A DNA stretch of 33,819 bases from Hydrurus foetidus (taxonomy: Eukaryota), in NCBI GenBank assembly GCA_900617105.1, contig UYFQ01000298.1, forward strand, positions 1-33,819, read 5' to 3'. The translations under genes and the position numbers were made by a program. The notes under the pieces were generated by a model. The model did not search any database. It was not told the origin of the DNA and saw nothing but the letters and a program-made list of their open reading frames with translations. Positions 3,570-29,098 of this stretch are shown here, in pieces. Positions within the stretch are counted from its first letter, which is position 1; the number at the start of each line of letters is the position of its first letter.

Positions 3570-5435
3570 ACCCCAAACACCCAAACCCCAAACCCCAAAC
3601 CCCAAACCCCAAACCCCAAACCCCAAACCCCAAACCCCAAACCCCAAACCCCAAACCCCAAACCCCAAACCCCAAACCCCAAACCCCAAACCCCAAACCC
3701 CAAACCCCAAACCCCAAACCCCAAACCCCAAACCCCAAACCCCAAACCCCAAACCCCAAACCCCAAACACCAAACCCCAAACCCCAAACCCCAAACCCCA
3801 AACCCCAAACCCCAAACCCCAAACCCCAAACCCCAAACCCCAAACACCAAACACCAAACACCAAACACCAAACCCCAAACACCAAACCCCAAACCCAAAC
3901 CCCAAACCCCAAACCCAAACACCCAAACCCCAAACCCCAAACCCCAAACACCAAACCCCAAACACCAAACCCAAACCCCAAACCCCAAACCCCAAACCCC
4001 AAACACCAAACCCAAACACCAAACCCCAAACCCCAAACCCAAACCCCAAACACCAAACCCCAAACCCCAAACCCAAAACCCCAAACCCCAAACCCAAACC
4101 CCAAACCCTAAACCCCAAACCCCAAACCCCAAACCCCAAACCCCAAACCCCAAACCCCAAACCCCAAACCCCAAACCCCAAACCCCAAACCCCAAACCCC
4201 AAACCCCAAACCCCAAACCCCAAACCCCAAACACCAAACACCAAACCCAAACCCCAAACACCAAAACACCAAACACCAAACACCAAACACCAAACACCAA
4301 ACCCCAAACCCCAAACACCAAACACCAAACCCCAAACACCAAACCCCAAACCCCAAACCCCAAACCCCAAACCCAAACCCCAAACCCAAACCCCAAACCC
4401 AAACACCAAACCCAAAACCCAAACCCCAAACCCCAAACCCCAAACCCCAAACACCAAACCCCAAACCCCAAACCCAAAACCCAAACACCAAACCCCAAAA
4501 CCCAAACCCAAACCCCAAACCCCAAACCCCAAACCCCAAACCCCAAACACCCAAACCCAAAACCCCAAACCCCAAACCCCAAACCCCAAACCCCAAACCC
4601 CAAAACCCCAAACCCCAAACACCAAACCCCAAACCCCAAACCCAAACCCCAAACCCCAAACCCAAACCCCAAACCCCAAACCCAAACCCAAACCCAAACC
4701 CAAACCCAAACCCAAACCCCAAACCCCAAACACCAAACCCAAACCCAAACCCAAACCCCAAACCCCAAACACCAAACCCCAAACACCAAACCCCAAACCC
4801 CAAACACCAAACCCCAAACCCCAAACCCCAAACCCCAAACCCCAAACCCCAAACCCCAAACCCAAACCCCAAACACCAAACCCCAAACCCAAAACACCAA
4901 ACCCCAAACCCCAAACACCAAACACCAAACCCCAAACACCAAACACCAAACCCCAAACCCCAAACCCCAAACCCAAAACCCAAAACCCAAAGCCCAAAGC
5001 CCAAAACCCAAAGCCCAAAACCCAAAGCCCAAAACCCAAAACCCAAAACCCAAAGCCCAAAACACAAAACCCAAAGCCCAAAACCCAAAGCACCAAAACC
5101 CAAAGCCCAAAACCCAAAGCCCAAAACCCAAAACCCAAAGCCCAAAACCCAAAGCCCAAAACCCCAAACCCCAAACCCCAAACCCCAAACCCCAAAACCC
5201 CAAACCCAAACCCCAAACCCCAAACACCCAAACCCCAAACACCAAACACCAAACCCCAAACCCAAACCCCAAACACCAAACCCCAAACCCCAAACCCCAA
5301 ACCCCAAACCCCAAACCCCAAACCCCAAACCCAAACCCCAAACCCCAAACCCCAAACCCCAAACCCCAAACCCCAAACCCCAAACCCCAAACCCCAAACC
5401 CCAAACCCCAAACCCCAAACCCCAAACCCCAAACC
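3570..5435 (+). repeat. Internal telomere-type array (AAACCCC)n = (TTTGGGG)n, C-rich strand on +
   Basis: ~1.87 kb of 7-mer repeats; pure at both ends, with AAACACC, AAACCC, AAAACCC and AAAGCCC variants in the middle. Confidence 0.95.
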
Positions 5436-5617
5436 GCTCAAAGCTTACGGTTCGGGTTCGTCTGTGCAGCTAAAATTTGGAAGAACATCGGTCTATACTC
5501 CATAGACACCGACAGATTTCTACAACACCCATCACAAGGGTTTGGGAACTTCTCCGACTCTGGAAAGACAATGTGGTCGATGCGTTGTCGGTCTGTTGCT
5601 TATTTGCTGTAGGTAGC

Positions 5618-7941
5618 ATGACTTCTTTTCTGAGCGCTATCACCCAGCGGAAGAAAACCCCGGAACAGCTCGTTATCTCTGCGAAACTGTCCGTGAACTC
5701 ATATCTAGATGGTGACAACACAGCAGAGGAGAATTTAGCTAAGAGGTTAGTCCAAATTAAATTGATATTGTATGGGGATGGAGATCATCCTGAGGTCGAT
5801 GAAGAGAAGGCGCTCGAAGTTGGGAGAAGTGTGCAATCGGTAAGAATTCTCTCAGGTTTGTCTGTTAGATTATTTTCTGAAGACGCCTCCATGATTATAC
5901 CATTATAAATTGGTCTGACTATTAGGAGCGTTTAATCATTGTGATCGTCGAAAACATTGAGTCCATTCCTTTTGAGATCAGGAAAGACTCTGCATTGATA
6001 TTCAACAATCTGATGAGAAAAAATGTTGCAAACTTTTCTGGTTACATGCTCGAGAATTTCGATATCGTGAAGCGGCTTATCGAGGGTTACGAGCATCCAG
6101 ATGCTGCTTTAAACTGTGGATCGATGATTAGGGAGTGCATTCGGCACAACAATCTGGCGAACGCTATCTTAAGCTCCGAATATTTGTGGAAGTTCTTCGA
6201 CTCCTACGTTCACTTTCCCAACTTCGAAGTGGCGTCTGACGCCTTCAACTCTCTTAGGGATCTACTAGTCACAGTTAAGAATAAGACTATATCGTCCGCG
6301 TTCTTAGAAACGCACTTCGAAGAGGTCTTCACGCACTACGAAGTGCTACTGAAGAAGGGTAACTATGTAACTAGAAGAAGAGCGCTCAAGCTCTTAGGAG
6401 AGCTTCTCTTAGACAGAAGCAACTTCAACGTCATGATAAAATTCATCGCATCTAGAGATCATCTAAAGGTGCAGCTCTTTCACCTGATTGATTTTTCCAT
6501 TCGTTATGTAAACAGAATAGCACAAAAGAGATAGGAGATATTCTTGTTTGAATTTGAAAGAGATAGGCCACAGCTATCAACACCTGTCATTTTTTTTGGG
6601 TCCGATTGCACCGCAGCATGAGCTGATCCTGCGTATTCTGATACTTTAATAAGGAATATTTGAAAAGTGCACACACCTCACTCAGAGACCACCTCTCTAT
6701 TTTCAATGAATTCAGACAATAATGAACTTTCTGCGCGACCCCTCCCCGAACATCCAATTCGAGTAAGTTCTCATATGATGTATACTATTTGAAAAGAAAG
6801 ATTTCTGTAATGAATGACATTGTGTAGATTTATTTTATCAGACTTGCCGACGAAATCAAGGCCATCTCATTCCGAATACACCTACTAACTTATATCATTA
6901 ATACTCCTCTTTTTTACTTAGGGCTTTTCACGTTTTCAAAGTTTTCGTTGCGAATCCTAAGAAACCTATAGAAATTTCAGACATTCTTTTTAAGAATAAA
7001 GCGAAACTCATTCCGTTTTTAGAATCATTTCAAACTGAGAAAGGAGACGAGCAGTTTAATGATGAAAAGAGTCTACTTGTGGAGTAAGTCCCATTGAGAT
7101 TTGTACTTCTGCTTGCATCAGTGACTGACGTATGTACCACTAGCTGATAGCAATATCGACTCGTTCACTTTCTGATGACTGACTGGTCTTCAAGGGACTG
7201 ACTGTCTGTCTGTCTGACTTACATACTTACTTACTTACTTACTAAATTAAGATTACCATCGATGCATGGACACACACACACAGCCAATTATGAAGGCGTG
7301 AGTCTGACTGACGGTCGAATTGCTGGAAGTCACTGCCCCCGTTATTTCCACTGATCTTAGACCACCACGATCATCACACCTAGCACTTACACACTGCAAT
7401 TCCCTGCACAAATGACAAGCGCACCCCTGCATATGCACTCACCGTACGAACGTTATTTCATTTATTCTGCAGCACCCTGAAGGCATTAGAGAAACCATCG
7501 ACTGGGAAATCGTCCCCCACTATGTCGAAACTAGCCGGTTCTTCTTCTAAATTAGCCGTGTCTTCCAGTCTGTGCAGCAGAGACATTCCCATGAGAGCCC
7601 ACATAAAATCCACACACACAGAGGAAATTCCATTAGTGATTAAAATGGATGGTATCGAGCTGGGGCTGTCGGAGGAGAAAGTGGAATCTAAGGTCCCGAG
7701 TCCGCCCTGTGACGTACGCATAGACTGTAATGGCGAAACTCAAAGTAGTGCAGGAGTCGCTAGATCGGAAGTCGATAGGCCCGTGTCTCAGTCTGAGACC
7801 GAGACTGAGACCGAGTCTCGCTCTGACTCTGCGATACAGCCGTCATCTGTGATCCCGCTATTGGGAGCACACTCCCTTACGGAATCTGACTCACAGTCCA
7901 CTCGAAGTCGCAATGAGGAGTCGGCAGGGATGGCCACCTGA
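5618..7941 (+). CDS. MO25: MO25/CAB39 (Hym1)-family scaffold protein, 5 exons: 5618-5839, 5926-6468, 6716-6762, 6922-7083, 7473-7941 (~480 aa)
   Basis: Family motifs [68 protein letters not shown]. All four introns are GT..AG with consistent phases; the spliced frame is open to TGA at 7939-7941. Confidence 0.95.
7196..7243. repeat. Compound tetranucleotide microsatellite (GACT/GTCT/TTAC) in MO25 intron 4
   Basis: gactgactgtctgtctgtctgacttacatacttacttactttactt. Confidence 0.6.
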
Positions 7942-21196: not shown

Positions 21197-21458
21197 GGGG
21201 GCTCTCTTCTACCCAGAGGGATTCTCACACTGGTCCCGCCTGATTTTTGAAAAAATGAAATACCCTGAAGCGATCAGCGGTTTTGCATATGCAGTTGGCA
21301 TGTGCATTTGGCATTTGCATTTGGCATGTGCAGTTGGCATGTGCCGTTACAGCAAACAGGAGCACAATTTTCATCCAGCAGTCATACACAGGTAGGAGCC
21401 AGTCCCAACTTTACAGCACATTCTTATACTTCGGTGATTAAATATTCCCTCCGACGTC

Positions 21459-24260
21459 ATGAATTCATCGGGAATTAGTTTCGAAGCATTCCTTCAATCA
21501 GAAGGCATCTATGAGAAAACGATCGAAGAATTGTATGATTGTGAAATTATCTTCCTTGCACGTGAAAGCATTCATGTTGCATTCTTCGTACACTTTATGG
21601 CAGATGAAAAATCTTGGCTGGCATTTCAGAAGATTTTATTCGATCTCGTGTCATCATATCTTGAATCCTACAGCAAAAACGTCTCGTTGACCCAAGGTGA
21701 TATAGAGAAACGAATGAAATCTGGTAAAATTGTGGTTACTAAGTTTGAGCAAGACCGAAATGTTTCGCGCGGAATATATGAAAAAAAGTTTCTTCAGTTG
21801 CCCTTGATTAAGTCTCTATTTGATGAGCCGCAGAACGATGAAATCAATCGCAGTATTAATGAACAGGGCCGTTTACTTTTCTGCTATTTAGAAGACCTTT
21901 CCTAAAAAAACTTCTGGACTTGGCATCATCAAAACAAAGGACTGCATGTTGACAACTTTATCACTGAAAGGGCGTCTGACATAAACTTTGACTATTCGGA
22001 GACCATGTTGCATAAAGTTTACGATATTACGGGCTATTTATGTGGTCATCGGATTTATAACCTTATACATTTAAATAGATTGAGACAAGACTACGTTGAA
22101 ACTTTCCAGAATTACCGTATTTTAACCCTTCACGCAAACGGCAATGATGCTTTAGCTCATAATCTTCCGGTCTTATGTATTTCATTTCGTGAACATTCGG
22201 AGGGACTTTATTATTCCAAAGCTGATAATTTTAATTTTATAAAAATTGTTCAAGGCATTTGGATGCAGTCATTGACAACAGATGTTTCAATACTCTTCAA
22301 TGCATTCGAGCCAGTTAAGCGCGTACATAAAGTCATACTAAATTCAAAAAATGTTCAACTTGCATTCAAGAAATTTATGTTGCAGGATTTATTTAAGGAA
22401 AACATGAACCTTGCAGATGACGAGAATCCGATATCTTTTCTATTTCAGTTTATCATAAATGGATTTATTCGAACGCACGTAAGAGACATATATATATGTT
22501 ACGACTTTCTAATGCTCTACTTAGCAAAACAGGCGCCTCTGGTATTAGGACAAATTTGTCATCATTCAGTGCGAAATCAGTTGCACTCAAACAGAATACC
22601 AATAATGTTAAGCTTCTTACCAAAAATGTATCCAACGACTTAGTTAATAGTCAACAAGGTAATCGATCGTCATCCTCGTTATCCTGTCCTTGCGGGAAAG
22701 TTTTTGTACGCGCGTCATGGTTTGAGAGACATGCATTAAATTGCAATATATCTCGTAAGATTGTATCACCTTTAGATCAAGAATCCGCAATAATGGAAAA
22801 TTTGATTGGTATGAATTATTTTGATCAGACATTCCAGAAATTGGAAGGACACACAGCAACAGGATTAATCCAGATACAACTTATTTCAATAAAAAATTAT
22901 ATGTTAGTTTTTTTTTATTCTAGAGTATTTGGAATATTTAATTTTATCTAAGATTTCTAATGTGTTATTTATATTTCATTTGTCAACAGGTCCGAATGGT
23001 AAGCCTGGCAGGAGGTCAGCTAGACTACTGTGTTTATCAGTGTTTTAATACATCAATGACGTCTTTGGATATATATACAGCACTAAGAGAAGTATTGATT
23101 GCAACAGCAACATTACAATTCGACATTATAGCAATAATAGCTGATGGAGCACAGTGTAACCGACAGTTTCAAAAGAAATATTTCACCGATGGAAATAGCG
23201 ACTATTCACATATGAAGCACCCAATAACTCATCAGCCTATTTATTACATCTCTGATCCATCTCATATGATTAAAAAAATTGTATCGAGCTTATCCAGTAG
23301 AAATAGAAATATATTTAAAACTGTCGACAATAAAGACAGAAGGGTATCTCTAACAGTCATGTTCGAACTCTGGATGTCCTTTAATGATAATTTAGGATTG
23401 AATAGTTCAAATTATTCAAGACTATTGATTTTCTAAAGAATTCTTTCCAAGGTATGAGAGTTGGGCCTTGTATAAAAGTTCTGGGACCTAAAATGATTGA
23501 GATGATGATAGACTTAGCTTTACTATACAAAGAGGAATACAAAATTTTCAATAATAACAAAGAGAACGAAAATAAATTGAATCCTTACGAATTCTGCAAA
23601 GATGCAGACTTGTATTTAGGATGGCGTGAAGCATCGCAATATTTCACAAATCTTTTCAATATCTTAAATTCTACTAAAAATAGACTCAATACAACAAATT
23701 ATTCTGAAAATTATCAATTTCTAATAGAATTTCAAAAGTAGTTTACAAATTGGAAGATAGAATGCATCGACAGAAAAAAAAAGAATTGCCTGCAATTCAC
23801 ACAGCCTATGAAGGAATGACTGGATTCTGTACGGCAGAGGCAGCTGAGGATTGCCTATCTATGATTTAAAGTTTGAATAACAACACTGGTGACTATTTTT
23901 TCTTTCTACCCCGCCGCATAAGTCAAGACTTAGTTGAAAATGCTTTTTCAAAAATTCGAGTCGCGATAGGCCACGGTAGATTGGACCACATTACAACGTT
24001 TAATGTGTGTACAGAGGTAAGTATGATAAAGGAAGTTAAAATAAGTGAATGATCTTCAAAGAGAAGGAATGCAGTGGGTGGGCAAATTTAAAAAATTAAT
24101 TCAAATAAGGATTATTTATCTTATGATGACATGTAGAAAAAATAGCTTCAAAAATCGCAGTGTAATTTATGAAAATTCAAGTAAACTCCTTTGGAAAATT
24201 GTGAATGGTCTTAAAATGATAGAAAACAAAATGCAAAATTTAAGTCGTGATCACAATTAA
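21459..24260 (+). pseudogene. P-like transposase gene B: YxxGY-type domain, C2HC finger, then catalytic second half
   Basis: YDITGYL...EGLYY (22020-22215); CPCGKVF....FERH...C (~22685-22745); probable intron 22903-22989; IIADGAQCNR (D at 23143), YISDPSHMIKK, MRVGPCIKV, RRISQDLVENAFSKIR (E at 23936). Several frameshifts and stops. Confidence 0.8.
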
Positions 24261-25492
24261 AATCACATATGCATACATACAAAAAAAAAAAGCTAAATTC
24301 AAAAACGAGTGTGTACAACAGAGTAAAAAAAGTAGTCACATCAGTCGTATACGTTATCAACACGTAAATGAGAAATTAATGAGGCGTCAAATTCATTTTT
24401 CTTCTATCTTCATCTGTTTCTCTGCATTACGAAAAATAATTTCGCTATCCTTTCCAGGGTATTCACCCAATTCTTCAATGTCTATTTTCTTTCTTTGCAT
24501 CGTCAGACTTCAAATCATAAAAGTCTTGATAAATTTCGTTTTTAATTCCGTGAGGAGCAATTTCTGCTAATCCGAACACTCTACTCCTTGTAACAGAATA
24601 TATTATACCATTTGTAATAATCATATCATCTATAAGAAGTGCTGAATGTTCCTTACTAAGTTTACCATCTAATCTTGCAGATCTAGATGCCATCAATAGA
24701 TTATTCAGTTGGAGTCCAACCTCACAATTAAAATTTGATTTGTATCTATTATAATAAAAATTAGATTGATTATAAATGAAGGTTTTTAATTGATTTAAGA
24801 TGCATTCTTACTTTGTTAAGGTTGACCAACATGGTAAGGATCTAAGCGTGGCCTCCTTCTCGTAGTTTACTTTTCCTAGATTGTGTGCTAATTCCAGAGA
24901 GTAATTTAGGATTCTAGAAGACAACTTCACTGTTCGAATTCCTCTTTTGTTACCGATTTATTATAATTGCCTAATTGCGATGTTTCTGATCTAATTAATT
25001 CTTTGTGTAATAAGAATTTTTCAAAATCTCCTTCATGTTCTTTCTCTATAAGTTCATCTTTAAAAGTATAAAATTTAAACCATTTATCAGATTCCTGGTC
25101 ACTAATATTTATGAAGGCTTTTTTATCGTGCCCAACTTTACGCCATTGGGCAACTGCTGACTTCAGATCTTTGCATCAAGACTTCCAGTAAGAAACTTTT
25201 TTTCTTAACTTATTCATTATTTTCTTTTTTTCTATTAAGATCTTTTCATTTTCAACCGCTAATTGTTGGTTTTTCTTTTTCAATTCTTCAAAACTATTTG
25301 AACTTTTTTAAAGTGATTTATTATGTTCACTCAGTAAGACTTTTTTGTTTGGCTGCAAACCTGTAAAATTTCTCCAGAAAATTCTACAAGATGCACATAC
25401 TGATACATCACTGCTACCTGCATCGCATCGGATAAAGCATCCCCAATTCTGCATATGATATTCATTAAATTTGTCATTATTCTTGAATAATA

Positions 25493-26236
25493 CCAGTGCC
25501 GGTAATAACGCGGTTTCGGTAAAAACGCGGTTATTCGACCCGGCAGGTCCGATATCTCTCCAAATTCTTCATGAAAAAGTTTTTGTCAAACATTCTCACA
25601 GGTAATTCGATAGTTTTACATTCGCTTCGATTATTAAAGTTTTCTGAAATTGATGATTTCATCACGAGATCGACATTAGTCACTTCTGGCGATTCACCAA
25701 TGTCGGATATAGATGAAGCAAGAGTATGCTTTAGTTATTCTATCTTGTAGGCAGTAGTCATATTATTATGGACACGCGAGGGTTTCGTACAAATCGCGAT
25801 AGTCACTGAGATGCATCAGTTTCAGAGACCAAAAATGTGCCTTTTTAACGTATTCGGGATGCGATTTCCCAATATTTCGACGAAAAAGGCACATTTTTGG
25901 TCTCTGAAACTGATGCATCTCAGTGACTATCGCGATTTGTACGAAACCCTCGCGGATTCATAATAATATGACTACTGCCTACAAGATAGAATAACTAAAG
26001 CATACTCTTGCTTCATCTATATCCGACATTGGTGAATCGCCAGAAGTGACTAATGTCGATCTCGTGATGAAATCATCAATTTCAGAAAACTTTAATAATC
26101 GAAGCGAATGTAAAACTATCGAATTACCTGTGAGAATGTTTGACAAAAACTTTTTCATGAAGAATTTGGAGAGATATCGGACCTGCTGGGTCGAATAACC
26201 GCGTTTTTACCGAAACCGCGTTATTACCGGCACTGG
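25493..26236. mobile_element. Foldback element FB2 (744 bp, 354-bp inverted arms, 4-bp TSD AATA)
   Basis: CCAGTGCCGG...CCGGCACTGG; spacer 25847-25882; AATA at 25489-25492 and 26237-26240; removal with one TSD restores the gene A frame (SPSALLFKNND). Confidence 0.92.
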
Positions 26237-26549
26237 AATAGTGCACTTGGGCTCGCAGCAGCAACTATATATTCTAAAAATAATCTTTTTTTCATTCTTG
26301 GTAAGATAAAGCCAATGAAAGTACTATTTTTTTTAATCGTACTTGCATTATCAAGTAGTACACACAATTTTGTACAATAATTTGTATTTCGATTCTCGTC
26401 ATTAATTAATATATTTAAATTAGTCCGGCATTCTTCAAAGTGCCATATCTTTAAGGGAGATAAAAAAAATCCGGTGCACTTGGAAACCTAAAAAATAAAA
26501 ATAACATTATGAAACACCGATAATAACACGCAGAAACCATAAACAACAT

Positions 26550-28133
26550 AATAAGAAGTACACGCGCATCATTGATGTTCTGCTACAATGCACTTTACAT
26601 ATATATCTCGCACCTCATTTGATATCAAAGCTTGGTGAGGAGTGCTTGGGACCTCAGGGCTGACCCAAAAGTAGGGGGGAGAACGTACGTGTACCTACAG
26701 TATAATGCACTAGATGTAAGCTACTAGAAACACAATAAGAAGTACACGCGCATCATTGACGTTCTGATACAATGCACTTTACATATATATCTCGCACCTC
26801 ATTTGATATCAAAGCTTGGTGAGGAGTGCTTGGGACCTCAGGGCTGACCCAAAAGTAGGGGGGAGAACGTACGTGTACCTACAGTATAATGCACTAGATG
26901 TAAGCTACTAGAAACACAATAAGAAGTACACGCGCATCATTGACGTTCTGATACAATGCACTTTACATATATATCTCGCACCTCATTTGATATCAAAGCT
27001 TGGTGAGGAGTGCTTGGGACCTCAGGGCTGACCCAAAAGTAGGGGGGAGAACGTACGTGTACCTACAGTATAATGCACTAGATGTAAGCTACTAGAAACA
27101 CAATAAGAAGTACACGCGCATCATTGACGTTCTGATACAATGCACTTTACATATATATCTCGCACCTCATTTGATATCAAAGCTTGGTGAGGAGTGCTTG
27201 GGACCTCAGGGCTGACCCCAAAGTAGGGGGGAGAACGTACGTATACCTACAGTATAATGCACTAGATGTAAGCTACTAGAAACACAATAAGAAGTACACG
27301 CGCATCATTGACGTTCTGATACAATGCACTTTACATATATATCTCGCACCTCATTTGATATCAAAGCTTGGTGAGGAGTGCTTGGGACCTCAGGGCTGAC
27401 CCCAAAGTAGGGGGGAGAACGTACGTGTACCTACAGTATAATGCACTAGATGTAAGCTACTAGAAACACAATAAGAAGTACACGCGCATCATTGATGTTC
27501 TGCTACAATGCACTTTACATATATATCTCGCACCTCATTTGATATCAAAGCTTGGTGAGGAGTGCTTGGGACCTCAGGGCTGACCCAAAAGTAGGGGGGA
27601 GAACGTACGTGTACCTACAGTATAATGCACTAGATGTAAGCTACTAGAAACACAATAAGAAGTACACGCGCATCATTGACGTTCTGATACAATGCACTTT
27701 ACATATATATCTCGCACCTCATTTGATATCAAAGCTTGGTGAGGAGTGCTTGGGACCTCAGGGCTGACCCAAAAGTAGGGGGGAGAACGTACGTGTACCT
27801 ACAGTATAATGCACTAGATGTAAGCTACTAGAAACACAATAAGAAGTACACGCGCATCATTGACGTTCTGATACAATGCACTTTACATATATATCTCGCA
27901 CCTCATTTGATATCAAAGCTTGGTGAGGAGTGCTTGGGACCTCAGGGCTGACCCAAAAGTAGGGGGGAGAACGTACGTGTACCTACAGTATAATGCACTA
28001 GATGTAAGCTACTAGAAACACAATAAGAAGTACACGCGCATCATTGACGTTCTGATACAATGCACTTTACATATATATCTCGCACCTCATTTGATATCAA
28101 AGCTTGGTGAGGAGTGCTTGGAACCCCAGGGCT
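26550..28133 (-). repeat. 184-bp tandem array, 8.6 units; each unit is a 103-nt intron plus an 81-nt exon of gene A
   Basis: Unit starts 26551, 26735, 26919, 27103, 27287, 27471, 27655, 27839, 28023; only a few substitutions between units. Confidence 0.9.
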
Positions 28134-28890
28134 TCCTCTACTGCTCCCCACGTACTGTTTTCTTAAGTTCAAATCGACACCACAAAATTCGTGAATTTGG
28201 AATGTCTCCCCAGTCCGGTAAGTGATTTTTATCTGCCTACCCCTAACTAGATTTATCCTGCGAGAGGCCAAAACGTTGCTCACAGAGCTCTTTTTACAGA
28301 GGGTGCGAAGCGCCGAAATTATGACGTCATTCATCTCTGTATAACCTGAAGACTCTAGTAAGCCAGCTAAAACCTCTTCGCCAGGCACTCCTTTTTTTGT
28401 AGTTTTAGAACTAAGGAAAGAGTCTAGAGATTCTCTTAGAATCTCCAAGGCGTGAAAACCTGTGATCAGAGTCGACCTGGAATGCAGAAAAAGGTGAAGG
28501 TTAGAAAATTTTCATTTCCCGAGCGCATCTGCACCAAATTTGCTGGATGCAATAAATCATGTTGAAGTAATTGTACAAAAAAATGGTGCAGATGCGCTTC
28601 GAAGAGGAAAAATTTCTCAGTGATTGCACTCGGGTATAGGCACAACAAGAAAAAATTCTTGGATTAATGATGGACAGATGAAGATAAAACTCACATCACA
28701 GAATGCGCACGATATCAATCTGTCAGTCTGGGCGCCTAAAGTTCGAAAGGCGGACGACTTGATACTTTCTTATGTGATAACAGCAGGTGTACGCTGCTAG
28801 TGCTATCACTTGCCTGTTGGGTATTTAAAACTTGAGTGAAGTGTCGGTGAGAAAAGTCTGGGCGGGGCGGGAGCTTGTAAGTGCCCCCTC

Positions 28891-29098
28891 TGTAGTCCTG
28901 ATGGAGAAGAAGATGTGTAGGAGAGCGGGTTGTGCTTAGGTTACAGACTATGCTAGAAGCTAGGTAACTTCTACGAGTAGGCTGCAGCTAGCTAGCTAGT
29001 CGTGGTAGGGCTGTATATGTACTGTAGGCGGAAGGATCGGGTGGATCGTGACAAGGTCCGGTACGGCCCGTAGGCCCGGTATACCCGGTACGACCACA
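28891..29098 (-). repeat. 3' LTR of Gypsy A copy 2 (208 bp)
   Basis: Reverse complement is homologous to 2191-2397; TG..CA ends. Confidence 0.9.

Follow-up and report, generated by a model that had tools for sequence, protein, structure and literature searches.

A 184-bp tandem array around a probable splice donor in a broken P-element-like transposon of Hydrurus foetidus

The window analysed here, a stretch of 33,819 nucleotides from Hydrurus foetidus (contig UYFQ01000298.1), a eukaryote with the standard genetic code, contains a tandem array of a 184-bp unit inside a broken P-like transposon, and diverged relatives of this transposon share the array at the same site. The array probably lies around a real 5′ splice site, and it is likely to have been kept by splicing that is neutral to the reading frame rather than by selection on the encoded peptide. 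To this reading, taken as a whole, we assign a probability of about one in two.

According to TRF, the array in the assembled contig has a period of 184 bp and 8.6 copies, with 99% matches and 0% indels, and it is not due to chance: a 19-mer was matched nine times, compared to 0 in 100 shuffles. On the minus strand nine donor-like GAG/GTGCGA sites are found (at 28085, 27901 and so on to 26613). An earlier sequence-only reading had described each unit as a 103-nt GT..AG interval plus an 81-nt phase-0 stop-free segment, had noted that the unspliced frame stops in every unit, and had placed the downstream frame at VSKCTGF. All of this was borne out: the eight full units (8/8) have this anatomy, with the segment reading VHVRSPPYFWVSPEVPSTPHQALISNE; the 81-nt segments are in frame with both flanking exons; unspliced, the array has a stop in every frame; and the ninth donor leads to a 126-nt GT..AG interval that closes at 26488, with VSKCTGF coming next. 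Phase 0 applies throughout, for all donors and for both types of acceptor. Among the eight full units 4 of the 184 positions are variable, all by substitution. Both variants inside the 81-nt segment are nonsynonymous (W>G in two units, H>Y in one), and the eight segments are therefore not all identical in peptide. Two intron variants of the fourth unit recur in the last partial unit, and one of its segment variants recurs in the fifth, a pattern that would fit unequal exchange and seems unlike a single unit copied by the assembler. The features of the array and of its host element are collected in Table 1.

Table 1. Position of the array and of the surrounding features in the window
Feature	Coordinates	Strand	Remarks
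Tandem array, 184-bp unit	26545..28133	-	48-nt partial unit, 8 full units, 69-nt partial unit
First 103-nt GT..AG interval	27983..28085	-	recurs every 184 bp to 26695-26797
Last of eight 81-nt stop-free segments, candidate exon	26614..26694	-	first segment at 27902-27982
Terminal 126-nt intron	26488..26613	-	69 nt of unit sequence, then T-rich tract and AG
Gene A, upstream open frame	28086..28511	-	helical domain with a hairpin of two strands (end near 28175), then a tail; the first partial unit makes up the last 48 nt
Gene A, downstream exon (VSKCTGF...)	26237..26487	-	cut by foldback insertion, beyond which the VSKCTGF frame resumes
Foldback element interrupting gene A	25493..26236	.	744 bp, 357-bp arms, CCAGTG ends, TATT duplication on both sides
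Gene A, remaining part	24380..25492	-	stops and frameshifts; coiled-coil-like stretch, IDDM motif
Gene B, P-element-type catalytic region (DGAQ, DPSH, SQDLVEN)	22990..24242	+	four pieces, three frames
Further broken open frames upstream of gene B	21438..22900	+	weak C2H2 match
3′ LTR of gypsy-type retrotransposon	28891..29097	-	right bound of the P-like element

The host of the array is a dead P-element-like DNA transposon. Its decay, already asserted in the sequence-only reading, is confirmed by the stops, frameshifts and foldback insertion of gene A and by gene B, which, compared to its intact relative P0055, shows 4 stops and 3 frame changes. In the window copy gene A is a pseudogene, so that no full protein can be produced from it. 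The family assignment relies on gene B, for which 15 relatives of 290-450 aa were found among 348 candidates; the model of this family gave only two Foldseek matches at E<=0.001, both to Drosophila P transposase (E 1.6e-6, TM 0.41). It comprises an RNase H catalytic region with a P-type helical insertion, and the match to PF21787 is weak (E 0.003). The upstream domain of gene A was modelled with a pLDDT of 77, order being lost beyond about residue 100, and it weakly resembles a winged helix (best match VIA, Z 5.2, rmsd 4.2, 92 aligned); a Foldseek search with this domain gave no match at E<=0.001, and a sequence search of the PDB with A1 gave 0 matches. In the remaining part of gene A, the motif IDDM likely represents the first catalytic Asp of a P-like transposase, as judged from its alignment with LDEM of L001, which reaches an E of only 2.9. 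L001 is a distant, ordinary P element that the locus search found in one of 55 stretches; the viral and prokaryote contigs searched yielded nothing. Homologue searches for longer proteins joining the downstream exon or the IDDM piece gave 0 of 31 and 0 of 54 candidates, respectively, and a THAP domain was matched neither in the pieces from the window nor in 18 aligned sequences.

The two genes face each other, and the likely first catalytic Asp is found on the strand opposite to that of the second Asp and the Glu (IDDM on the minus strand, DGAQ and SQDLVEN on the plus strand). The reading of gene A appears to end where that of gene B begins in the ordinary P transposase of L001. This arrangement is either a split common to the whole family or the result of an inversion of gene B in the window copy. 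The sequence-only reading had placed the array in a transposase subunit; gene A is at most a candidate for a separate one.

When the right end of the element was compared to two candidate left ends, no terminal match indicative of terminal inverted repeats was found; both sides are bounded by LTR insertions. There are two gypsy-type LTR families (9257-9475/20979-21197 and 2192-2397/28891-29097), the pairs being 95% and 87% alike, and between the LTRs of the first pair lie about 12 kb that contain nested, broken retroelement frames. The LTRs bounding the P-like element both abut runs of G. Near the left LTR boundary, at 21281-21348, about five copies of a 13-bp repeat are present, possibly subterminal sites, and an inverted repeat with 39-nt arms (28503-28617) lies just upstream of the gene A frame; P0018 and P0030 translate through sequence related to it. 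Further away, at 3570-5435, about 269 copies of the 7-mer AAACCCC and its variants form a telomere-like yet internal tract beside a Mo25-like host gene (5474-6534, plus strand; Pfam PF08569, E 1.7e-57).

A profile-free HMMER search with 28134-28511 identified 13 proteins, of which P0016 and its cluster member P0030 read on into the unit. In P0030, whose upstream protein is 71% identical, the unspliced frame continues through 1.4 units, at the site and with the period found in the window; 66 of 103 residues are identical to the window and at least 45 of 309 nt are different. On the upstream side, the arrays of the window copy and of P0030 lie behind the same element sequence. Because P0030 has the same junction and period, with the junction in relatives judged from protein sequences, the array would be older than the split between the window copy and P0030, and the 99% identity of its units would reflect recent homogenisation. 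The sequence-only reading had proposed a recent amplification; as an origin of the array this does not hold, given that a relative with so many differences has the array there, and only the homogenisation would be recent. Its suggestion that the unit was built from the element's own sequence fared better, as the tails of both P0016/P0030 (p 0.002) and P0019 match the unit. The tail of P0019 (47% identical) agrees with the unit at 11 of 21 positions without gaps (p 0.002 over six frames), and with the window's exon tail alone at p 0.056; for its relative P0035 the comparison with the unit gave p 0.18. Two lineages, window/P0016 and P0019, have an upstream frame that enters the frame of the unit's segment. 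P0017 joins unit sequence out of frame (7/10, p 0.007). The tail of P0025 (VPTVNQCLIS) had also been likened to the unit, and was dropped as not significant.

The point at which the coding sequence leaves the array can be approached from the same proteins. In 6 of the 11 homologue rows compared, a Val is found exactly 14 residues past a conserved Asp, which corresponds to 28133, the first base of the array; the tails beyond it are dissimilar, reach a stop within 1-25 codons and in no case match the unit beyond chance. Such rows could be taken to mean that the whole array lies within one intron starting from about 28136/28133, with SPGVPSTPHQALISNE as read-through and the window copy having lost the T of the donor, all the more since in P0016 R/V-S, one codon earlier, corresponds to a GTNAGC site where the window has GGAAGC. 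We consider this quite unlikely. Judging from the codons that the genetic code allows, a G at +5 is absent from all six Val sites; V-x-T is common to four rows, which means that the Val may be a coding residue; and a single intron would leave unexplained both the RNA break at E/GT (see below) and the P0019 family, in which all six members listed (6/6) end in E/K-V-stop at the donor position. The donor at ISNE/GT is probably real, with modest independent support from the P0019 family and one RNA fragment.

On the acceptor side, contigs of the sequencing runs X1 and X2 over 26240-26728 include a copy about 86% alike, which keeps the acceptor at 26488 and then continues with about 200 nt unlike the unit; its departure from the window sequence lies 8 nt before the start of the exon, with the AG kept. 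This copy marks 26488 as a real exon boundary. The acceptor inside the unit (26694/26695) is weak and a candidate only: its tract is the poorest among those compared (62% pyrimidine and 44% T, vs 75%/75% for the terminal acceptor), and it is preceded by AGs at unit positions 74, 77 and 88, each of which would shift the frame or lead to a stop.

The geometry of the unit invites the interpretation of the sequence-only reading, namely that each unit consists of an intron and of an 81-nt exon that is included, and that active copies would carry a variable number of Pro/Ser-rich 27-aa repeats behind the N-terminal domain. GT-AG introns of the same phase and stop-free exons of 3n length are present in 8/8 units, the upstream frame enters the segment frame in the two lineages mentioned above, and no stop occurs among the 14 segment variants listed. 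However, such geometry is common by chance: in 94% of 1000 shuffled units, one or more GT..YAG routes left a stop-free remainder of 3n length, and the real unit has 7 such routes compared to a mean of 6.7 in the shuffled ones. With donor and upstream frame held fixed, 392 of the 1000 shuffles (39%) still yielded a suitable acceptor. The out-of-frame junction of P0017 also speaks against exon inclusion, an explanation that we hold to be unlikely, though less so than the other alternatives.

Part of the element was present in 15 sequencing runs, two of which contain over half of its words. The RNA runs X16 and X17 are from one sample, with the species label of X1, and about 6 in 100 of their reads were read; each yielded two reads belonging to one fragment (4 reads, 2 fragments). 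The fragment from X17 spans from about 26612 to 26690-26696, as estimated from bin means, and thereby covers nearly the whole segment before continuing in sequence unlike the stretch. Its departure from the unit comes two letters beyond GAG/, at a point for which the DNA contigs list no loose end; the unequal likeness classes of its mates fit a break on the donor side, and, given a stranded library of the common type, the fragment would be sense. As it carries the unit-specific 5′ third of the segment, an internal segment would be exonic in this transcript, as predicted by exon inclusion, and this is a counterpoint to the reading favoured here. The X16 fragment (about 26663-26699) ends its match at the break point of a DNA variant and retains four or more intron letters upstream of the acceptor, which would argue against inclusion, as would the count of 0 listed unit-to-unit joints in the 4 RNA reads, at 85 or 80 percent likeness and in the 6 in 100 of X16 and X17. 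Of the two splice sites that the sequence-only reading had put forward for a check in RNA, the donor is backed by the one X17 fragment and the acceptor by none in these reads.

Selection on the 27-aa peptide left no sign that could be found in the sequences compared. In P0030 the minimum number of differences is 16 of 81 in the segment, vs 11 of 103 and 12 of 74 in the flanking intron parts and 40 visible differences of 378 in the upstream exon; in this one comparison, possibly with a dead copy, the segment is therefore more diverged than the intron, and exon inclusion would predict otherwise. Nine of its 27 codons must encode a different amino acid, and one codon could be a stop, although it need not be. 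With the upstream exon itself differing at 40 of 378 positions, P0030 may be a dead copy without constraint. Among the single-base variants listed from contigs, 6 of 14 are synonymous in the segment (p 0.08-0.14) and 10 of 28 in the downstream exon (p 0.04-0.17), and neither excess is significant when transitions are weighted. These tests lack power, as the segment scores no worse than the real downstream exon. The sequence-only reading had described the unit variants as substitutions and not indels, which is correct within the window; beyond it, net length changes of -1, -2 and +1 were seen by eye beside -3 and -6 in the visible part of the segment in contigs, and the first three would break the frame of an included exon. 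Gapped records make up 4 of the 8 listed in X5 and 0 of the 8 listed in X2.

The contigs also bear on the possibility that the unit acts at the DNA level, as a captured genomic satellite or, for instance, as transposase binding sites comparable to the internal repeats of Galileo, with coincidental splice signals. In X2, one unit contig has a depth of 3370 compared to 381 for three exon contigs (summed bins range from 6,986 to 113,290), and the cautious single-contig reading gives a unit depth about 9-18 fold above exon depth, a ratio that is not a copy number. X3 and X5 contain the unit without the exon, pieces of the unit adjoin unrelated sequence in contigs, and the intron parts are as conserved as the upstream exon with respect to P0030. 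All this would suit a satellite; nevertheless, the ratio also fits arrays of this size inside elements, unit words are not enriched at either end of the element, and the unit shows no RNA fold signal (z -1.5) and no Rfam match at gathering score. We regard this possibility as very unlikely. The idea of a free satellite with about 100 times the abundance of the element had also been considered, and was dropped, since summed contig depth overcounts branched repeats.

In the preferred reading, the repeat would have arisen in an ancestral element of the subfamily, around the real end of an exon, and would then have been carried along by transposition. Within a copy, unequal exchange or conversion may hold the units at 99% likeness, whereas different copies diverge from each other. 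Most transcripts of active ancestors would have joined the ISNE/GT donor to the strong acceptor at 26488, with most or all of the internal units being dropped, and an occasional in-frame inclusion of the 81-nt segment may have been a tolerated by-product. As all sites are in phase 0, skipping or inclusion of a unit keeps the frame, for which reason the array would be tolerated. A more far-reaching proposal, i.e. a P-like family in which spliced 81-nt exons, in an array that can expand, determine how long a Pro/Ser-rich linker behind the N-terminal domain of the transposase is, the unit also serves as a satellite seed and the transposase is encoded on two opposite strands, is in our opinion unlikely, slightly more so than exon inclusion by itself and slightly less so than the single intron.

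In host genes, tandemly duplicated symmetric exons encode protein repeats and are defined by junction reads and by selection. The array resembles them in having same-phase 3n segments between near-identical introns, but the junction reads between units and the selection signal by which such cases are defined were not seen in the reads and sequences compared. For repeated exons in transposases, or for split P transposases, no apparent precedent was found in the literature covered, with most subscription journals and Repbase reports outside its scope.

As far as the available text of the reports goes, class II elements carrying repeats are common, and the closest precedent for the array is CDSTR177 of Drosophila koepferae, a satellite with a 177-bp unit for which a segment inside Galileo, a member of the P superfamily, was amplified (PMC13553610). 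The two have in common the P-superfamily host, a similar unit length, arrays flanked by the element's own sequence and amplification in place. The same portion of the report places CDSTR177 in a single species and mentions no part in splicing, whereas the Hydrurus array occurs in copies whose proteins are 71%, and probably also 47%, identical, and it extends across a likely donor of a coding gene. Other class II elements are also described as carrying short arrays with diagnostic variants in their interior, such as the DTC84 MITE with its tandem repeats (PMC3879986), the terminal inverted repeats of Galileo with THAP sites (PMC3688188) and the tandem-repeat-carrying transposon Tetris/TIR-220 (PMC4079207; PMC9659126). 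In the accessible parts of these accounts the arrays are located in non-coding cores or terminal repeats, in contrast to the Hydrurus array, which is located in a gene and shares no words above background with the element ends. The Drosophila P element transposase (PDB 6P5A, 6PE2; PMC7776569) has a fold similar to that of the gene B family and is encoded by a spliced multi-exon gene; as far as its description was available, the Hydrurus element differs from it in having no THAP match, an N-terminal domain that is weakly winged-helix-like and, in the window copy, the likely first Asp on the strand opposite to the other two.

That satellites can arise from repeats born in transposons is known, and the P superfamily offers a close precedent. 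What distinguishes the present case is that the array lies across a likely exon end, with a frame-neutral geometry, and has been kept over substantial divergence. As the window copy is dead and the support for splicing comes from one fragment, its value is that of a testable lead. If inclusion of the segment is true, the array would represent exon-repeat length variation in a transposase.
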